Below are positions 29,212 to 53,353 of a stretch of 64,000 bases of DNA, piece by piece. The notes beneath the pieces were generated by a model. That model worked only from the letters and a program-made list of their open reading frames with translations, had not been told where the DNA came from and ran no database searches. Where the stretch lies: positions 1-64,000 of IMG/VR virus record IMGVR_UViG_3300050821_009430; one strand, given 5' to 3'. Position 1 is the stretch's first letter. Every line of letters starts with the position of its first letter. The DNA comes from a virus. Position numbers and translations under genes: made by a program.

Positions 29212-30204
29212 ATGACTGAGACAATCAAAACAGCCCGTGATCTTTGCAAGTTCTATATGGGTCAGAATATTCCTGTCCTTGTTAGTGGGCCGCCCGGCGT
29301 CGGCAAGAGCGATATGTGGCTGCAAATTGCCCAAGAGACGAACCGTGGCTTCATCGATCTGCGCTTGGGTATGATGGACCCGACCGACCTTCTTGGCTTG
29401 CCAAGCGTTCACGAGGGCACCACGCGGTGGAACCGCCCGGCATGGTTCCCGGATGAGAAACGGGATGGCAAACAAGGCATCATCTTATTTGACGAGATTG
29501 CCGATATTGGCCGTGCCATGCAAAGCGCAGCCTATCAGTTGATCCTTAACGGCAGGGCTGGCCCGCATGTTCTTGGCGATGGATGGTACCGTTGCGCGGC
29601 AGGCAACCGACGCGAGGACCGTGCCGCCGCACAGGCCATGTCTACGGCATTGGCGAACCGTTTCGCCCACATTGACATTGTGTCGGATGTGGATGCTTTC
29701 ATTGAGTGGTGCAACAGGAACGATATTGACCCGCTAATCCCCGGTTTTATCCGGTTCAGGCCAAACCTGTTGCACAGCATGGAGGGGGCTGATCTCAGAG
29801 CCTTCCCTACCCCCCGTGCCTGGGCACGCGTCGCCAAATGTGTGCAAGCAGATGCCTCAATGCGCTTCCGTTTGGTGCAAGGCTTGGTAGGGGAAGGCCC
29901 TGCCGGCGAATTTGAGGTCTACATGCGTGGCCTTGACCTGCCATCGCTGGAAGACATCCTGGCCGATCCGAAGCGTTGCCCCATCCCCAAATCGCCCTCG
30001 AGTAAATATGCCCTAAGCTCCATGCTGGCGCGCTACGCCAAGCGTGACAACTTCGGCAAGATTGTCACCTACATTTCACGGCCTGATTTTGGCCGTGATT
30101 TTGAGACCGTGACAGCATTGGATGCCACCAAGCGGGATTCGTCACTGTGCGATACCAAAGCCTGGATTGAGTGGGCCAATAGAAACAATGATCTTCATCT
30201 GTGA
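29212..30204 (+). CDS. MoxR-type AAA+ ATPase
   Basis: GPPGVGKS, DPTDLLGLP, ILFDEI, AAGNR, ALANRF, FPTPRAW. Confidence 0.9.
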   Translation: MTETIKTARDLCKFYMGQNIPVLVSGPPGVGKSDMWLQIAQETNRGFIDLRLGMMDPTDLLGLPSVHEGTTRWNRPAWFPDEKRDGKQGIILFDEIADIGRAMQSAAYQLILNGRAGPHVLGDGWYRCAAGNRREDRAAAQAMSTALANRFAHIDIVSDVDAFIEWCNRNDIDPLIPGFIRFRPNLLHSMEGADLRAFPTPRAWARVAKCVQADASMRFRLVQGLVGEGPAGEFEVYMRGLDLPSLEDILADPKRCPIPKSPSSKYALSSMLARYAKRDNFGKIVTYISRPDFGRDFETVTALDATKRDSSLCDTKAWIEWANRNNDLHL

Positions 30205-30213
30205 GGTTCAGCC

Positions 30214-30960
30214 ATGCAATGCTCAGAATGTCGCTTTTTTAAGGGACCAACCCCCAGGACTGATCGCGGTGGTTACTGCCACCGCTTCCCACCACAAATA
30301 ATCTATGAAAGCTACAACAACGAAAATCACGGTCAAATCACTCAGCATTTCCCTTGGATGGAAAATACTGAATGGTGTGGCGAGTTCCGTTCAATGGTAG
30401 ACCCAAGGATATAAAATGAGCGAGCCAAAGTATCCAGATATCAAAGTCAAGCTCGTGGGTAACAACGGCAACGCTTTTGCTGTTCTTGCCAACGTGGCCG
30501 GGGCCTTGAAGAAGGCCAAGGTGCCTACCGAGGAAGTGGCCAAGTTCTATCAGGAAGCCACGGGCGGCAATTACGATCACCTTTTAGCAACCTGCATGAA
30601 ATGGGTGGATGTATCATGAAGCTTGTCACACAAACCGATCTTGAAGACCTTGCTCTGCTGCTGGAAGACCTTGTCAAGCGGTTGCCCAAGATGAAGCGTG
30701 AGGAACGCATTGACGTGGCCGCGCGTGTTCGCACCGCAGCCAAGCATCTTGAAGCCATAGATAAAATAGTCAAGGACGAAGTCAAGGAAGTGCGAAAAGG
30801 TAAGGAAGGCTACGTCAACGGCGAAACCTGGAAGGCCAAGCTCTCACTGGTGTCGGTCACACGTCTGGATCAGAAAGCCCTCAAGGAAGTCAAACCCAAT
30901 ATCTGGAATGAATTTGCCAAGGACAATGAGGATCAGCGCGTCTCATTTGAGCCACGATAA
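30214..30960 (+). CDS. Three small conserved phage proteins (30214-30414 CxxC/C type; 30416-30619; 30616-30960)
   Basis: CSECRFF...CHRFPP...WCGEF; VKLVGNNGNAF...GNYDHLL; TRLDQKALKE motifs. Confidence 0.6.
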
Positions 30961-30972
30961 GGGAGAAGGACC

Positions 30973-32184
30973 ATGGTCAACAAAAAAGCATTTGATGCTG
31001 TTATACGAGCACGTACCATTTTAGTGGTAGGGCAACCTTTTTTCGGCACGCTCGCCCTGCATCTGAATGTAGTGGAGGTTACCAATCCGGCTCAGGTCAA
31101 TACCATGGCCGTGGACGGCGTGAACCTCTATTTCTATGCACCGTTTGTTCTTGGGCTGAGTGAAGAGGAAATTGTTGGTGTCATTGCCCACGAAACGATG
31201 CACTGCGCCTATAGCCACTTCTCGAGACGTGGGCACCGCGATGCCCGCAAGTTCAATATTGCCGGTGACTTTAGAATTAACGACGACCTGAGAAAAGTTC
31301 CATTTACATTGCCAATGAAGCCAATCAATCTCAAACAATTGATGGCCGGCGAACAGGGTCATTTGTACGATCCCCAATTTGCCAATATGAGCACCGAAGA
31401 GATCTATGAAAAGATACCTGACCCGCCGCAAGCCCCGCAAGGGGGCAGGGGGCTTGATGACGGCGGCTGTGGGGCCGTGCTTGATGCAGGCAGTGGCGCG
31501 GCTGATGGCCCTGACAAGGCCAGTGCTGAGCAAATAGCCCATGAATGGCAGGCTAACGTGCGTATGGCTGTCAGCGTGGCCCGTGCCGCCAATGCGGGCA
31601 GCACACCGGGCTACCTTGAGCGGCTAGTCACGCAATTGAAGCGCCCCAAGGTTTCATGGCGTGACCTGACCCGGCAGTTCATTGACCAGTCAATGACCAC
31701 TGATTACAGCTACCGCAAGCCTAACCGCCGTCACATTGCCAGCGGTTTGATCCTGCCCGGCAGCGTGCCCGATGCTTTGCACGAACTGGTCATGTTCGTT
31801 GACTGCTCAGGCAGTATCAGCGACGAAATGATGCACAGTTATGTCAGCGAAGTGGCCGGTGCATTGGACGACGGAACAGCCGATAAGCTGTGGGTTGTCT
31901 ACGCCGATGACGGGGTGCGGCATGTGGACGAGTACATGCCGGGTGACGTCGTGAAGTGCAAAACACTTGGGGCCGGTGGTACTAACTTCGATGACAGCTT
32001 CAAATGGCTTGTGAAGAATGCCCCCGATGCCGCCTGCGCTATTTACCTCACCGACATGGAAACTGGATCGTTCGGCCAGGACCCCGGTATCCCAACTATG
32101 TGGGGGTGCTATTCGACCGAAGAAAGACTAAAATCAATCAAGCCACCATTCGGAACTCTTATCTTGGTGGAAGGCCCTCACTAA
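30973..32184 (+). CDS. Metallopeptidase-like (HExxH) plus VWA domain protein (DUF2201-like)
   Basis: TMAVDG, AHETMH, NIAGD..IN, EEIY, VSWR; MIDAS DCSGS, GGTNF, YLTD. Confidence 0.85.
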   Translation: MVNKKAFDAVIRARTILVVGQPFFGTLALHLNVVEVTNPAQVNTMAVDGVNLYFYAPFVLGLSEEEIVGVIAHETMHCAYSHFSRRGHRDARKFNIAGDFRINDDLRKVPFTLPMKPINLKQLMAGEQGHLYDPQFANMSTEEIYEKIPDPPQAPQGGRGLDDGGCGAVLDAGSGAADGPDKASAEQIAHEWQANVRMAVSVARAANAGSTPGYLERLVTQLKRPKVSWRDLTRQFIDQSMTTDYSYRKPNRRHIASGLILPGSVPDALHELVMFVDCSGSISDEMMHSYVSEVAGALDDGTADKLWVVYADDGVRHVDEYMPGDVVKCKTLGAGGTNFDDSFKWLVKNAPDAACAIYLTDMETGSFGQDPGIPTMWGCYSTEERLKSIKPPFGTLILVEGPH

Positions 32185-32839
32185 CATGTATCCATGCAGT
32201 CCGTTTCCATATTGCATAAATTGCAGTAACAGATATTCCAAATTCCTGCGCTAACATAGGTCCACTCTTTTTACTCATATAAATATATCTAACCTGATTA
32301 AGCGTCAATTTAATATTTTGACGGGTTTTCTTATCTTTGTGGTAAGTATGATAACCTTGAACACATGCAGTGCCGTTCGGGCATTTACATTTACTGCCAA
32401 GTTTTAATTTTCTGGTTTCCCGCTTCCAAATTTGTTTAGTTCGAATATCATAAATCGTGTCATAACTTACCCCATATTGGGTGCTTAATTTTCTCATACA
32501 TGCGTTTTTGGCTATAAAAATTTCCTTCACTTTTTTAGTGGTCAAAATGTTTCCACCAGAAGATTCGCCGTGTACTTGAGAACCATTAACAATTCTATCT
32601 TTGCTATTCTGTTCATGAAGAATGCACTCAACATTCCAAGGGGCATAAGGGCCTTTGTCGCCCTTGCGGGCCATCACATATCGGCCCCGTCCCCGCCCAC
32701 GTTTCTTCATCCAATTATAGCCTAAATGATCCTCCCACCACTCAACCCATTCTTCAAAAGTAAATTTCCATACTATATTTCGTTCAAAAGCGGTTTGCCG
32801 TTGTTCTCTAAAACGTTGTTTTACTAAGTTAATACCCAT
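32159..32839 (-). CDS. Free-standing His-Me finger (HNH-type) homing endonuclease-like protein
   Basis: FTFEEWVEWW...RG...YVMARKGDKGPYAPWNVECI...N, then two HTH repeats (LT..V..I...L...GVS/GIS...I..I...W). AT-rich and antisense to its neighbours; GAGG RBS at 32839. Confidence 0.7.
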   Translation of the reverse strand: MGINLVKQRFREQRQTAFERNIVWKFTFEEWVEWWEDHLGYNWMKKRGRGRGRYVMARKGDKGPYAPWNVECILHEQNSKDRIVNGSQVHGESSGGNILTTKKVKEIFIAKNACMRKLSTQYGVSYDTIYDIRTKQIWKRETRKLKLGSKCKCPNGTACVQGYHTYHKDKKTRQNIKLTLNQVRYIYMSKKSGPMLAQEFGISVTAIYAIWKRTAWIHVSEGLPPR

Positions 32840-32840
32840 C

Positions 32841-32877
32841 TTGCTTTCCTCACCGTAAATTAGTATAGTTACTATAC
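32841..32877 (+). promoter_or_regulatory. Promoter with a palindromic operator over the -10
   Basis: TTGCTT-17 nt-TATAGT; GTATAG-TTA-CTATAC at 32863-32877. Confidence 0.55.
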
Positions 32878-32900
32878 CTATAGGCCATAGGAGGCAATAC

Positions 32901-33104
32901 ATGAATTGGTTTGCATTGCAACGCCAACAATGGATTAAAGAAACGATAGAAATATTTGGATTCATTAATAGAGAGCACCTGGAACTAAAATTTGGGATAT
33001 CAACTCCCAAAGCTTCTAAAGACTTGCAAGAATATCAAAAGCTTTATCCTAAAACGATAATTTATAATAAAACATCTAAAAGATATGAAAAAGGGCCACA
33101 CTGA
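32901..33104 (+). CDS. Stand-alone wHTH resembling the N-terminal domain of CapW/BrxR-type WYL regulators
   Basis: R..WI...FGFINREHL..KFGISTPKASKDL..Y....P..I.Y..TSKRY; AGGAGG RBS. Confidence 0.7.
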   Translation: MNWFALQRQQWIKETIEIFGFINREHLELKFGISTPKASKDLQEYQKLYPKTIIYNKTSKRYEKGPH

Positions 33105-33255: not shown

Positions 33256-33284
33256 TTGACAGCCCTTTCTGCACCACTTATATC
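33256..33284 (+). promoter_or_regulatory. sigma70-type promoter
   Basis: TTGACA-17 nt-TATATC. Confidence 0.65.
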
Positions 33285-33330
33285 CAACCGAATTGGTGCT
33301 GACTGCGGCCAACCCCAGGTGATTGTTCTC

Positions 33331-33933
33331 ATGCAGCCCCACGAAGAACCGGCCCGGCCGCTTGACCTGTCAATACCAGAGGATGGTTCAATACCGGCTT
33401 TTCTGAAACGCCCATTTGAAAACGAAAGTGAGAACGGTGCCATGTGGAACAAGTTGTGGAGTGAACAGCGTAAGGTCTACGCCAGCGACGAAGCCAAGGC
33501 TGCTGCTGAGCCTGAAGCCGAAGCACCGGCCGCAAAGCCCAAACCTGTGAAGGCTGACAAACCGGCCAAAAAGGCAACGGCTAATGGTGCCAGCAAGCCC
33601 AAGGCTGAAGCCAAGGCCAAACCTGCGGCTAAGGCTGCGCCCGCTAAGGCCACTGCAAAGCCTGCCAAGGGCAAAGCCAAGGCTGAGCGTAAACAGGATC
33701 CGGCTAAACTGGACGCCTTTGGCTTCCGCAAAGAGAGCATCAAGTCCAAGGCAGCGGCCCTTTATGCCAAAGGCAAAGGTGCGACGCTGGCAGATGTTAA
33801 GGAAGCGCTTGGCAGCGTGCAATTCAACTTGCTTACGGAACTCAAGGAAAAGGGTTACGAGGTTGAAGAGTCGGAAGTCAAGAACACCAACGGCCGTATG
33901 GTGACCCGTTACAAGATAGTTTCCAAAGATTAA
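33331..33933 (+). CDS. Histone-like (Ala/Lys/Pro-rich) protein with C-terminal wHTH-like domain and N-terminal IPAFLKR peptide
   Basis: KPKPVKADKPAKKA...KPAAKAAPAKA linker; FGFRKESIKSKAAALY..G.GAT...LG...NLL..L..KG domain. The start is 33331 or 33442. Confidence 0.75.
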   Translation: MQPHEEPARPLDLSIPEDGSIPAFLKRPFENESENGAMWNKLWSEQRKVYASDEAKAAAEPEAEAPAAKPKPVKADKPAKKATANGASKPKAEAKAKPAAKAAPAKATAKPAKGKAKAERKQDPAKLDAFGFRKESIKSKAAALYAKGKGATLADVKEALGSVQFNLLTELKEKGYEVEESEVKNTNGRMVTRYKIVSKD

Positions 33934-33957
33934 GTAAGCGTTGCGTCCTGCGTATAG

Positions 33958-33988
33958 GGCCAAGGGCACCCCAGTCCTTGGCCTTTTT
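33958..33988 (+). terminator. Intrinsic terminator
   Basis: GGCCAAGGG-CACCCCAG-TCCTTGGCC-TTTTT. Confidence 0.75.
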
Positions 33989-34014: not shown

Positions 34015-34581
34015 ATGATAGACCTTGCAGCAATTCCCGCTGAACGTCTTGCTATGTTGGACAACGCAAAGCTTTACAACGGTTCGCATGACGGCGGGAC
34101 TGGTGGCCCAGATTGCAAGCATTGTGCCCGTGAATTGCTCTATGAGGTTGTTACTGGTAATCATGCAGATAAAGTGCCGCCCGGATGTTCGGTCATGATT
34201 GGCGTTCTGCCAACATTCAATGATGGCCCTTGGCTCAACGACGATCATCGCACGGAGGTGATGCGTCCCTACCTCAAGAAAATGCTAACCCTTGATCCAG
34301 CAAGGGATGCTGAACGAGTTTTCTATCTGCTCGATCACGTCTACCGAGCCGACCTCCCAACCATCTGCGACCTGTTTAAGGAGGATGAGGCTGCAAAAAA
34401 GTTGCGCGGGTTGGCACCAATCACCAATAACAAATCTGCGCTGCGTGCGCTGGATGCGATGCGTGCGCTGGGTGCGCTGCGTGCGCTGCGTGCGCTGGAT
34501 GCGCTGGGTAAAAAGCAAATCGCCGAAGCGTGGGCCAAGAACTGTACCGACGCCCTCGATCTTATCTGCTCTATTGAATGA
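34015..34581 (+). CDS. Hypothetical protein with an (AL-R/D/G)n tract
   Basis: AAGGAG RBS; GSH...C..E...D.P.C...FND motif. Confidence 0.65.
   Translation: MIDLAAIPAERLAMLDNAKLYNGSHDGGTGGPDCKHCARELLYEVVTGNHADKVPPGCSVMIGVLPTFNDGPWLNDDHRTEVMRPYLKKMLTLDPARDAERVFYLLDHVYRADLPTICDLFKEDEAAKKLRGLAPITNNKSALRALDAMRALGALRALRALDALGKKQIAEAWAKNCTDALDLICSIE
34438..34509 (+). repeat. Eight tandem 9-nt repeats (consensus GCGCTGSRT)
   Basis: gcgctgcgt gcgctggat gcgatgcgt gcgctgggt gcgctgcgt gcgctgcgt gcgctggat gcgctgggt. Confidence 0.9.
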
Positions 34582-41148: not shown

Positions 41149-41664
41149 ATGATACCTTCCTTAATCAAACCAGCTACCAGAAATACCCCGTGGCCTGAAG
41201 AACAAACAGAAAAACTGAGGAACCTTGTACTTGATCCCAATATGACTGCTTCAAAGATAGCAATAGAGCTGGGCGATGGCCTTACGCGGCATGCGGTCAT
41301 AGGCAAAATTCACAGATTAGGCTTACAAAATAATATATGGGGAAAGGGGCAAAAAAACGGAAGGCCAAGAAAGACAAATCACAGGGGGCAATCTGCGCAA
41401 AGCAAACAGACGGCCCTTTATTTCACCAAGCGAAAACGCTTAAGAGTGCTTTTAGTTGAGCCGGCATCCTCACAATTTCCAAATGTTGAGCCTTCCGCCT
41501 TTGATAATGCAATCCCACAAGAACAACGCAAAACACTTATGCAGTTGAACGGTCACACTTGCCGGTGGCCTGTTGGTTACCCAGGCGAACCAAATTTTTT
41601 CTTTTGTGGGGCATTAACTGATACCACCTATTGTGATTATCACACTACCCGATCAATTAGATAA
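41149..41664 (+). CDS. gcrA: GcrA-family cell-cycle regulator
   Basis: W..E..EKL...TASKIA.ELG..LTRHAVIGKIHRLGL N-domain; L..L....CRWPVG.P....FFFCG......YC..H C-domain. Confidence 0.9.
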   Translation: MIPSLIKPATRNTPWPEEQTEKLRNLVLDPNMTASKIAIELGDGLTRHAVIGKIHRLGLQNNIWGKGQKNGRPRKTNHRGQSAQSKQTALYFTKRKRLRVLLVEPASSQFPNVEPSAFDNAIPQEQRKTLMQLNGHTCRWPVGYPGEPNFFFCGALTDTTYCDYHTTRSIR

Positions 41665-52188: not shown

Positions 52189-52442
52189 ACCGGAATCCAA
52201 AGGAGCTTGCCAAACGAATATTGGAAATAGAAGCCGTTTATTCCAATGACATCCAATTCAGCTTAACTAATCTTGGGTTACGGCTAACATTTGGCGAAAC
52301 ATCGCTCATTCAGGATGAGCCACCAACTCATCGAATCGCGGTGTTCATCCCAGCCCCTATTATTGAACCGTTCATGACTGGGCTTAAAAACGTCATGGAA
52401 CAACACGCTCAGAATAATGCTCCGCCAGAAAAAACCAACTGA
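52185..52442 (+). CDS. DUF3467-like small protein
   Basis: VYSN.......L.LTFG.......V.IP motif. Confidence 0.55.
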   Translation: MNRNPKELAKRILEIEAVYSNDIQFSLTNLGLRLTFGETSLIQDEPPTHRIAVFIPAPIIEPFMTGLKNVMEQHAQNNAPPEKTN

Positions 52443-53353
52443 TGCTCTACCGTACCAAAAGTGGTACCAGGACGCTTTACCGTAGCCGCCCGCTATTGCT
52501 TACCCCGCAGCAAGCCTACACACGCCCCAGCCCCGGCAAAGCATGGTTTGCCACTACAACCAGCGTGTGGCGTGTTGATGAAATCATTAAGCGAAGTGTA
52601 CGTGACTGGCGCAGGCTGACTGGGGAAACTGGCCACACTGGCGAACGTGCTGAAACGATGCGAGCCGATCATGAGAGTGTGTATACCGGCACGCACAGCG
52701 TATTCGCTGCCCCATTGGTAGAATGGATTTTACTTCGATACGGCGGCGAACCGGGTGGGCATATACTTGATGCCTTTGCCGGTGGCCCACCACGGGCGTT
52801 AGTTTCAACCATTATGGGCTATCGGTATACTGGGTTTGAGATACGCCAGTCACAAATTGATGAAAATAAGAACACATTGAAGCAATTGGGCCTTACCGAG
52901 TGCAACTATATCCTTGCAGATGGCCGGTATCTTGCCGATGATATTGGTCCTTTCGATGTTGCACTAACATGCCCGCCTTATTACGATCTCGAAGTTTACA
53001 GTGATCTTGAGAATGATCTCAGTAATTTGGCTACCTATGGGCAGTTCAATTTTGGGATGTACTCTTGTGCATTAGCTCACGCCAAGGTGATGAAGCCTGG
53101 GGCTTTTGTTTGTATTGTTGTTGGAAATTTCAGAGATAAAAAAGGTGAATTAGTAGATTTCAGAGCACACACTGTTGAGAATTTCCAAGAAGTTGGATTT
53201 GTGTTTTGGCAAGATGTGATCTTGGTTAAAAACACTGGGAGTGCCACGATCAGATCCACTAACGCATGGCGTGGGAAAAAACTCGTCCCGATACATGAAC
53301 ATTTACTTGTCTTCAGACAACCAGAAAACAAAAAGGTTGAAGCAGATGAATAG
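52442..53353 (+). CDS. DNA amino-methyltransferase (N6-A or N4-C)
   Basis: SVF.APL.E, ILDAFAGG (motif I), GFEIR, TCPPYYDLEVYS (motif IV), HE.LLVF. Confidence 0.85.
   Translation: MLYRTKSGTRTLYRSRPLLLTPQQAYTRPSPGKAWFATTTSVWRVDEIIKRSVRDWRRLTGETGHTGERAETMRADHESVYTGTHSVFAAPLVEWILLRYGGEPGGHILDAFAGGPPRALVSTIMGYRYTGFEIRQSQIDENKNTLKQLGLTECNYILADGRYLADDIGPFDVALTCPPYYDLEVYSDLENDLSNLATYGQFNFGMYSCALAHAKVMKPGAFVCIVVGNFRDKKGELVDFRAHTVENFQEVGFVFWQDVILVKNTGSATIRSTNAWRGKKLVPIHEHLLVFRQPENKKVEADE

Follow-up and report, generated by a model that had tools for sequence, protein, structure and literature searches.

The 64-kb window analysed here, which is part of a 78,457-bp IMG/VR virus record (IMGVR_UViG_3300050821_009430), contains a gene, P0001, whose product carries near its N-terminus a short peptide resembling the tail of the bacterial cell-division protein FtsZ. 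Judged by sequence comparison, this peptide is a conserved and translated match, over about ten positions, to the C-terminal conserved peptide of FtsZ. The rest of the protein consists of a basic, histone-like linker and a winged-helix domain, and by its predicted fold and its composition P0001 is probably a DNA-binding protein. The gene also has a second conserved start codon, from which a shorter form without the peptide would be produced. The preferred reading, to which a probability of roughly 45% is given, is that the N-terminal arm of the long form docks on a host protein that reads the FtsZ tail, titrating or tethering partners of the Z-ring; P0001 would thus probably plug into, or jam, the division machinery of the host. 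The positions of all features are given in Table 1.

The FtsZ-tail-like peptide

The tail of Escherichia coli FtsZ (residues 370-383, DYLDIPAFLRKQAD) binds ZipA, FtsA, MinC, ZapD, ClpX and SlmA, and two of its residues, I374 and L378, are crucial to the binding of ZipA, FtsA and MinC (PMC4117426). The Asp, Pro and Phe of this peptide are invariant across species, within an eight-residue core D-[IV]-P-x-F-[LI]-[RK]-x (PMC9939409). In P0001 the corresponding peptide lies within the acidic first 37 residues (isoelectric point (pI) 4.4), which hold PLDLSIPEDGSIPAFLKR; residues 11-27 read LDLSIPEDGSIPAFLKR, which includes GSIPAFLKR, and a second acidic stretch begins at Met38. The Pro and Phe that are invariant in FtsZ are kept in the family of P0001, the protein itself reading I-P-A-F-L-K-R at this place.

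The family motif was defined as [ILVM]-P-x-[FWY]-[LIM]-x-[KR] within residues 6-21, and it was found in 80 of 214 sampled family proteins, against 0.1 expected from shuffled N-termini. The motif-bearing proteins include homologues as distant as E ~1e-10, and their consensus is D-D-L-D-I-P-A-F-L-K/R-R-D/E. Among these 80 members, Pro and Leu are present in all, Arg in 79 and Phe in 77; Ile, Leu or Met occupies the first position in every one, as does Arg or Lys the last. The 25 closest homologues all share P22, F24, L25 and R27, and I21 is conserved in at least 90% of them, whereas their linker varies freely. Within the window, the motif pattern occurs in one real open reading frame (ORF) only. 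The sequence-only reading of this DNA had proposed that the N-terminus of P0001 mimics the FtsZ C-terminal peptide, and had pointed to the conservation of IPAFL in homologues as a way to check it; the likeness and the conservation are both borne out by these counts.

In many members, a second conserved stretch, R-D-x-N-N-x-S-E-[FIL]-x-x-M, follows the motif (approximately residues 27-38 of P0001). It persists in a lineage whose FtsZ-like core has decayed, and it may be either a part of the binding site or a coding constraint around the internal start.

Two start codons and translation of the extension

In all motif-bearing loci compared at the DNA level the reading frame stays open, and the codons of the motif vary synonymously across loci (ATA/ATT/ATC, CCG/CCT/CCA, TTT/TTC, CTG/TTG/CTC, CGC/CGT), so that the residues are kept, which indicates that the N-terminal extension is translated. 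The upstream ATG is aligned in seven of eight relatives and is preceded by a Shine-Dalgarno-like sequence of its own. The duplex energy of this region to ACCUCCUUA is only -3.8; AGGTGAT is presumably complementary to an AUCACCU end of the 16S ribosomal RNA. In one lineage, represented by two assemblies from different samples (L003, positions 2983-2985, and L014, at the same position), ATC replaces the long-form ATG and the extension is otherwise intact; the near-identical sister contig L015 keeps the ATG (positions 308-310).

The internal ATG is likewise conserved. M1 and M38 both occur without exception in the 25 closest homologues. In 78 of the 80 motif-bearing members the motif is followed by a Met at a distance of 5-22 residues, and Glu is enriched at -3, -4 and -6 of this Met, while Met makes up 0.9% of the residues elsewhere in these proteins. 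At the internal ATG, a duplex energy to the anti-Shine-Dalgarno sequence of -6.9 to -7.1 kcal/mol was calculated in 6 of 11 related loci, and only 6% of in-frame positions reach -7. Among the relatives, the stronger Shine-Dalgarno sequence belongs now to one start and now to the other; in the window, both starts have one of modest strength. Motif-less relatives (L006-8, L009-12 and L024) begin exactly at the internal Met, a short distance downstream of a stop codon. The simplest reading of these alignments would be that an ancestral short protein gained an N-terminal extension and that both starts were kept.

The use of the 33331 ATG, on which the proposal of mimicry depended, is thus backed by its alignment in relatives, its own AGGTGAT and the protein-level constraint on the codons that follow. 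The sequence-only reading had cautioned that the motif is translated only if this ATG is used and not the one at 33442. Both codons exist, and the form started at 33442 lacks the motif; what does not stand is their treatment as alternatives, as both are conserved starts. With the 33442 ATG as a second conserved start, two isoforms are likely; the longer one would carry the tail, and the shorter one would be without it.

A different explanation would be that translation yields the Met38 product alone, the in-frame stretch upstream being an untranslated leader. Many gene callers start the homologues at the internal Met, the internal Shine-Dalgarno sequence is strong in several relatives, and one lineage has the ATC mentioned above. 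This explanation is nevertheless considered very improbable: the extension is conserved at the protein level with synonymous variation in a frame that stays open wherever the motif is found, the ATG is aligned together with the AGGTGAT Shine-Dalgarno sequence, and the sister of the ATC variant keeps its ATG.

Architecture of P0001 and its family

The linker of P0001 is disordered and resembles the tail of histone H1 in its composition, and an AlphaFold2 model built with 81 homologues folds the C-terminal part into a winged helix with helices at residues 137-146, 153-160 and 167-173 and strands at residues 177-184 and 190-197, that is, a three-helix bundle with a beta-hairpin wing. The Ala/Lys/Pro linker and the winged-helix-like domain noticed earlier in the bare sequence are therefore confirmed by composition and by the model. 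Residues 11-30, with the peptide, have a predicted local distance difference test score (pLDDT) of about 75 in the same model.

Structure comparison of the C-terminal domain returned generic winged helices. The Foldseek matches had probabilities of at most 0.99 and E-values of at least 0.05, none of them significant, and the VIA-align matches had Z-scores of 5-6.5; together they comprised the winged helices of PadR, MarR, ArsR, ScpB and TFE. Pfam gave no significant family for P0001, and none for the 81 family members, among which HTH_39 appeared in four at E of at least 0.016 and DUF3489 in none. The nearest named Atlas clusters are of DUF3489, with a score of 0.83, which is below the reliability line and serves as a lead only. 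With PHROGs, P0001 gave only a weak match to phrog_8208. A sequence search of PDB with the 29-residue N-terminal peptide found nothing, the peptide being too short for such a search.

Another protein of the window, P0082 (51565-52188, + strand, 207 residues), likewise ends in a winged helix of this kind, which follows a charged linker and has 38% identity to that of P0001 over 50 residues (E 1e-6). The FtsZ-like peptide is absent from P0082.

Homologues of P0001 numbered 81 in a word-indexed search and 233 clusters at 50% identity in an exhaustive HMMER search, and all of them come from metagenomes or uncultured viruses. Comparison at the DNA level was made with 23 related loci. An apparent motif match in the record of L010 was discarded as it lies in a spurious frame.

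The same peptide on other proteins

The peptide is also found on proteins unrelated to P0001. In a scan of IMG/VR, the exact sequence LDIPAFLRR was present in 16 contigs. The carriers in contigs L027-L036, several of which are from isolate genomes, include MT-A70 or N6/N4 DNA methyltransferases of phages and prophages and a ParB_N-MT-A70 fusion. There the peptide is placed in tails, either terminal or between domains, usually with DDG before it, and in three further contigs (L026, L037 and L038) it ends three residues before the end of small ORFs. Six of the ten carriers examined, and most of those that could be named, act on DNA. A related arrangement exists in two motif-less relatives, L009 (4028-4366, + strand) and L012 (5034-5381, + strand), in which a small protein encoded 1-2 kb further downstream has DVPAFLRK or EVPEFLRR at its C-terminus. 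These two small proteins are weakly related to each other, and shorter homologues in L005 (5430-5645) and L006 (3620-3823) are without that tail; a homologue search with the small protein of L012 found only itself, and the instances number two. On this comparison of sequences, the peptide is a portable module in its behaviour.

Other explanations of the peptide are possible. One is that it is a degron or an adaptor tag that, like the C-terminus of FtsZ, delivers the long form to ClpXP or a related AAA+ protease, so that the long form would be short-lived or compete with FtsZ for degradation, the short form would be stable, and the main purpose would be timing rather than a block of division. 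A review of degrons lists the C-terminal AKEPDYLDIPAFLRKQAD of FtsZ among those of ClpX, in a table which also includes N-terminal degrons read by ClpX (PMC8138137). ClpX is named among the binders of the FtsZ tail, isoforms differing only in a tag would suit differential stability, and the occurrence of the peptide on DNA methyltransferases fits regulated turnover; however, the I, P, F and L conserved in the family are the positions reported to be critical for the binding of ZipA, FtsA and MinC. The determinants recognised by ClpX are situated more in the linker and in the basic residues after these positions, which also counts against a degron, and this explanation is regarded as improbable.

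Another explanation is that the peptide binds something outside FtsZ biology and that the likeness is convergent; the partner might be a phage protein, such as the MoxR-VWA pair encoded nearby, or a factor of DNA metabolism, or the peptide might be a capsid-targeting or processing signal. The occurrence of the peptide on several DNA-acting families (methyltransferases, the ParB_N fusion and the histone-like protein) is in agreement with it, and so are the lack of conservation of the FtsZ Asp in the family, the RD-x-NN-x-SE-[FIL]-x-x-M stretch after the motif, which is not known in FtsZ, and the tight synteny with the MoxR and VWA genes. This synteny is not tied to the motif, however, because all relatives, with or without the motif, share one gene order: the MoxR-type ATPase, the DUF2201 metallopeptidase/VWA protein, the histone-like gene, small ORFs and a DUF4262 protein. 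Moreover, the histone-like gene lies outside the structural module, and a match of about ten positions that includes the upstream acidic-Leu-Asp context would be hard to reach by convergence, which is why convergence, too, is thought unlikely.

Proposed mechanism

Docking on a reader of the FtsZ tail, the preferred reading, might operate as follows. A core early or middle gene of uncultured soil phages would encode a DNA-coating protein, with a basic lysine-, alanine- and proline-rich linker and a winged helix. The short form, started at Met38, would be the ancestral DNA binder, and the long form, started at Met1, would add a 37-residue acidic arm showing a short linear motif that copies the FtsZ tail. 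This arm may dock on a host reader of the tail, of which FtsA would be the most widespread candidate; ZipA, FzlC, ZapD, MinC, SlmA and ClpX are other candidate partners, depending on the host. Many DNA-bound copies would present the peptide multivalently, in the manner of an FtsZ filament, and the contact, which for a single peptide is weak and in the micromolar range, would thereby gain high avidity, with the ratio of the two starts setting the number of tails displayed. As a result, anchors or regulators of the Z-ring might be titrated off FtsZ and division delayed, or the coated DNA might be tethered to them. The evidence presented shows the motif together with its conservation and translation, the arrangement of domains, the second conserved start and the signals for transcription of the gene; from it we infer the DNA binding, the identity of the partner, the production of the isoforms and the phenotype alike.

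The plausibility of docking follows from the weakness of the free tail, the toxicity of tail fragments and the multivalency that a DNA-coating protein would supply. SlmA is bound by the free tail peptide at 81 uM, but by full-length FtsZ at 0.21 uM, which is approximately 400-fold tighter. The title of Du et al. 2015 reportedly names this avidity effect. Fragments comprising FtsZ residues 354-383 inhibit the growth of E. coli in vivo, and they are predicted to bind subdomain 2B of FtsA (PMC10769210).

The same evidence on the peptide, and its fusion to a predicted DNA-binding module, would also suit a localisation tag, by which coated phage DNA or the replisome is brought to the membrane or to mid-cell through FtsA or another reader of the tail and division is not blocked. 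The location of the gene in the arm of the genome with the replication genes is consistent with this idea. Nothing separates localisation from titration, however, and the motif-less relatives replicate without the peptide; localisation is considered a rather unlikely explanation.

Several observations weigh against docking on the divisome. P0001 itself has Ser (GSIPAFLKR) in place of the invariant Asp of FtsZ, and the residue before Ile in the 80 motif-bearing members is Asp in 25, Glu in 9, Gly in 21 and Ser in 16, so that it is acidic in 34 of the 80; acidic residues are frequent at -3 and -4 of the motif instead. The FtsZ peptide stands at the extreme C-terminus behind a disordered linker, whereas the motif is N-terminal in all 80 members and is followed by a disordered linker, a mirror image of the FtsZ arrangement. 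The internal Shine-Dalgarno sequence of the window, with a duplex energy of -4.9, is not above background. A DNA-related or proteolytic partner would account for the presence of the peptide on DNA methyltransferases no less well than a partner in the divisome, and because LDIPAFLRR is found on such enzymes of phages and prophages, the partner may not be divisomal.

The distribution of the motif and the search for a host add to these points. The motif is absent from 6 of the approximately 15 distinct lineages with DNA, and a pattern search of a complete 96-kb relative with terminal repeats found no [IV]-P-x-F-L-x-R peptide anywhere in it. In one lineage the motif has decayed to DLPKALVR, and the flanking RDKNNESELTKM is kept after it. 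The outcome that the sequence-only reading had named as contrary to it, a motif that is not conserved and is dispensable, is not the one found, as the motif is conserved in the 80 proteins that bear it; it is, however, dispensable in some lineages, since some relatives, including the complete 96-kb genome, are without it. The collection of cultured phages gave no match by DNA or by protein, and the species genomes of GTDB contained neither a relative of the histone-like family nor one of the HldE-like gene of the phage, which was tried as a clue to the host. No tRNA genes were found in the window.

The occurrence of the peptide on both a histone-like protein and methyltransferases allows a wider, more doubtful model, in which phages and mobile elements graft the FtsZ tail as a portable plug on DNA-bound proteins. 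Coated DNA would then imitate a multivalent FtsZ filament and act as a kind of nucleoid occlusion in reverse, with FtsA or further anchors of the Z-ring captured on the DNA and the two-start gene setting the density of plugs.

Transcription unit and genome context

P0001 appears to be transcribed on its own. The sigma-70-like promoter upstream of it was not called by a scan for consensus promoters because its -10 element is without the final T and ends in C. The -35 element, spacer and -10 element are kept in eight related loci, where the columns of CTTGACAGCC, TTT and TATAT show little or no variation. The terminator, which was missed by a pattern scan, folds with a z-score of -3.35, and none of 200 shuffled sequences folds as well. 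The monocistronic unit with a TTGACA-17-TATATC promoter and a terminator that was described earlier is therefore well founded.

The arms of the imperfect inverted repeat that brackets the -10 element pair across relatives with compensatory changes, for example GCACCA/TGGTGC against GTACCA/TGGTAC in L018, and the leader GGTGCTGACTGCGGCCAAC is better conserved among relatives than the coding region. From its sequence, this repeat might be an operator, possibly serving autoregulation. The formation of an RNA hairpin by the conserved leader was considered and rejected, as one of the arms falls within the promoter spacer, upstream of where transcription probably starts.

Table 1. Features of the P0001 locus and other genes of the window referred to in the text.
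Feature	Position	Strand	Basis or remark
Long-form ORF P0001, 200 residues	33331-33933, stop included	+	Translation
FtsZ-tail-like peptide PEDGSIPAFLKR, residues 16-27	33376-33411	+	Core IPAFLKR at 33391-33411
Disordered Lys/Ala/Pro-rich linker, histone H1-tail-like, residues 65-122	33523-33696	+	79% Lys/Ala/Pro, pI 10.7; pLDDT <50
Winged-helix domain, residues 123-198	33697-33924	+	AlphaFold2 pLDDT 85-95 (~90), three helices and beta hairpin
Shine-Dalgarno-like AGGTGAT, 7 nt before the long-form ATG	33317-33323	+	Same in L004, L017 and L019; AGGTAGG in L016
Short-form ORF from Met38, 163 residues, without motif	33442-33933	+	
Purine-rich GAAAGTGAG, weak internal Shine-Dalgarno, 9 nt before the internal ATG	33424-33432	+	
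Sigma-70-like promoter: TTGACA (33256-33261), 17-nt spacer, TATATC (33279-33284)	33256-33284	+	Sequence; unique in the window
Imperfect inverted repeat TCTGCACCACTT / AATTGGTGCTGA bracketing the -10 element	33268-33302		12-nt arms, 83% complementary
Intrinsic terminator: 12-bp stem, 6-nt loop, T-run	33956-33988	+	Stem-loop 33956-33985, -24.5 kcal/mol
MoxR-type AAA ATPase and DUF2201 metallopeptidase/VWA protein (HExxH)	29212-32184	+	Directly upstream
HNH-type homing-endonuclease-like gene	32159-33010	-	phrog_16521, phrog_59; between the VWA gene and the histone-like gene
GcrA cell-cycle-regulator homologue and N6/N4 DNA methylase	41149-41664 and 52442-53353	+	GcrA: PF07750, E 3.7e-28

The phage is of a lytic type and encodes a portal protein, large terminase, DnaB, primase, DNA polymerase, clamp and clamp loader. 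The nearest counterparts of its terminase and portal protein, with 35-54% identity, are from Microcystis, Brucella, Bradyrhizobium and other phages. The sole public sequencing run with this DNA is a soil metagenome, probably the source sample, and no RNA run with this DNA is listed among the public runs. A search of the phage record for the FtsZ family found none.

The genes for a GcrA homologue and a DNA methylase, taken together with the FtsZ-tail peptide, suggest that the phage has several handles on the cell cycle of its host. The GcrA-like gene does not fix an alphaproteobacterial host, because its nearest relatives in cultured phages belong to Synechococcus phages (26% identity). The HNH gene seems to have been inserted in this phage alone, since the relatives have about 500 bp at the same place. 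Downstream of P0001, an ORF of 188 residues (34015-34581, + strand) has its own AAGGAG Shine-Dalgarno sequence and a repeat-like stretch ALRALDAMRALGALRALRALDALG; it gave no family match and has no counterpart among the related loci.

Relation to known systems

The closest likeness of the P0001 peptide is to the C-terminal conserved peptide of FtsZ. Both have the core [D/E]-[IV]-P-x-F-L-[RK]-[RK], with acidic residues and Leu upstream, both are presented at one end of the chain by a long disordered spacer, and the binding hot spots I, F and L of FtsZ are shared. They differ in that the FtsZ copy is C-terminal on a GTPase polymer and the phage copy N-terminal on a predicted DNA-binding protein, in that P0001 has Ser for the invariant Asp, and in the further conserved stretch that follows in many family members. 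The linker, with its content of Lys, Ala and Pro, is like the repeat proteins of the histone H1 type, and the domain has the three-helix winged helix in common with DUF3489 and HTH_39, although the P0001 family has no significant Pfam match.

Lambda Kil, T7 Gp0.4 and SPO1 Gp56 are phage division inhibitors that act on the globular domain of FtsZ or on late divisome proteins, and none of them is known to copy the FtsZ tail. P0001 would be similar to them as an early or middle phage protein interfering with cytokinesis, an outcome which in its case is a proposal. Nucleoid occlusion by SlmA likewise links arrays of a DNA-bound protein to recognition of the FtsZ tail in an avidity-dependent manner, but SlmA reads the tail and P0001 displays it, and SlmA has a TetR-type fold in place of a winged helix. 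As regards the two starts, lambda S107/S105 and T7 gene 4A/4B are nested, in-frame dual-start phage genes. P0001, with its two conserved in-frame starts, may be like them, as its products would differ by an N-terminal extension; it would be unlike them in that its extension is a host-mimicking peptide.

In the literature searched, there was no report of an FtsZ-tail peptide outside FtsZ or of its mimicry by a phage. The finding would extend the interference of phages with host division, and viral motif mimicry, and would not place P0001 in any characterised family. Mimicry of host short linear motifs is a major theme in eukaryotic viruses and is barely documented in phages. If the docking reading is true, P0001 would represent a new route by which phages reach the divisome, through the readers of the tail rather than FtsZ itself, and would provide natural competitor peptides for an interface already explored as an antibiotic target. 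Moreover, the same exact peptide on unrelated DNA methyltransferases of phages and prophages suggests a wider, unrecognised docking code on the proteins of mobile elements.

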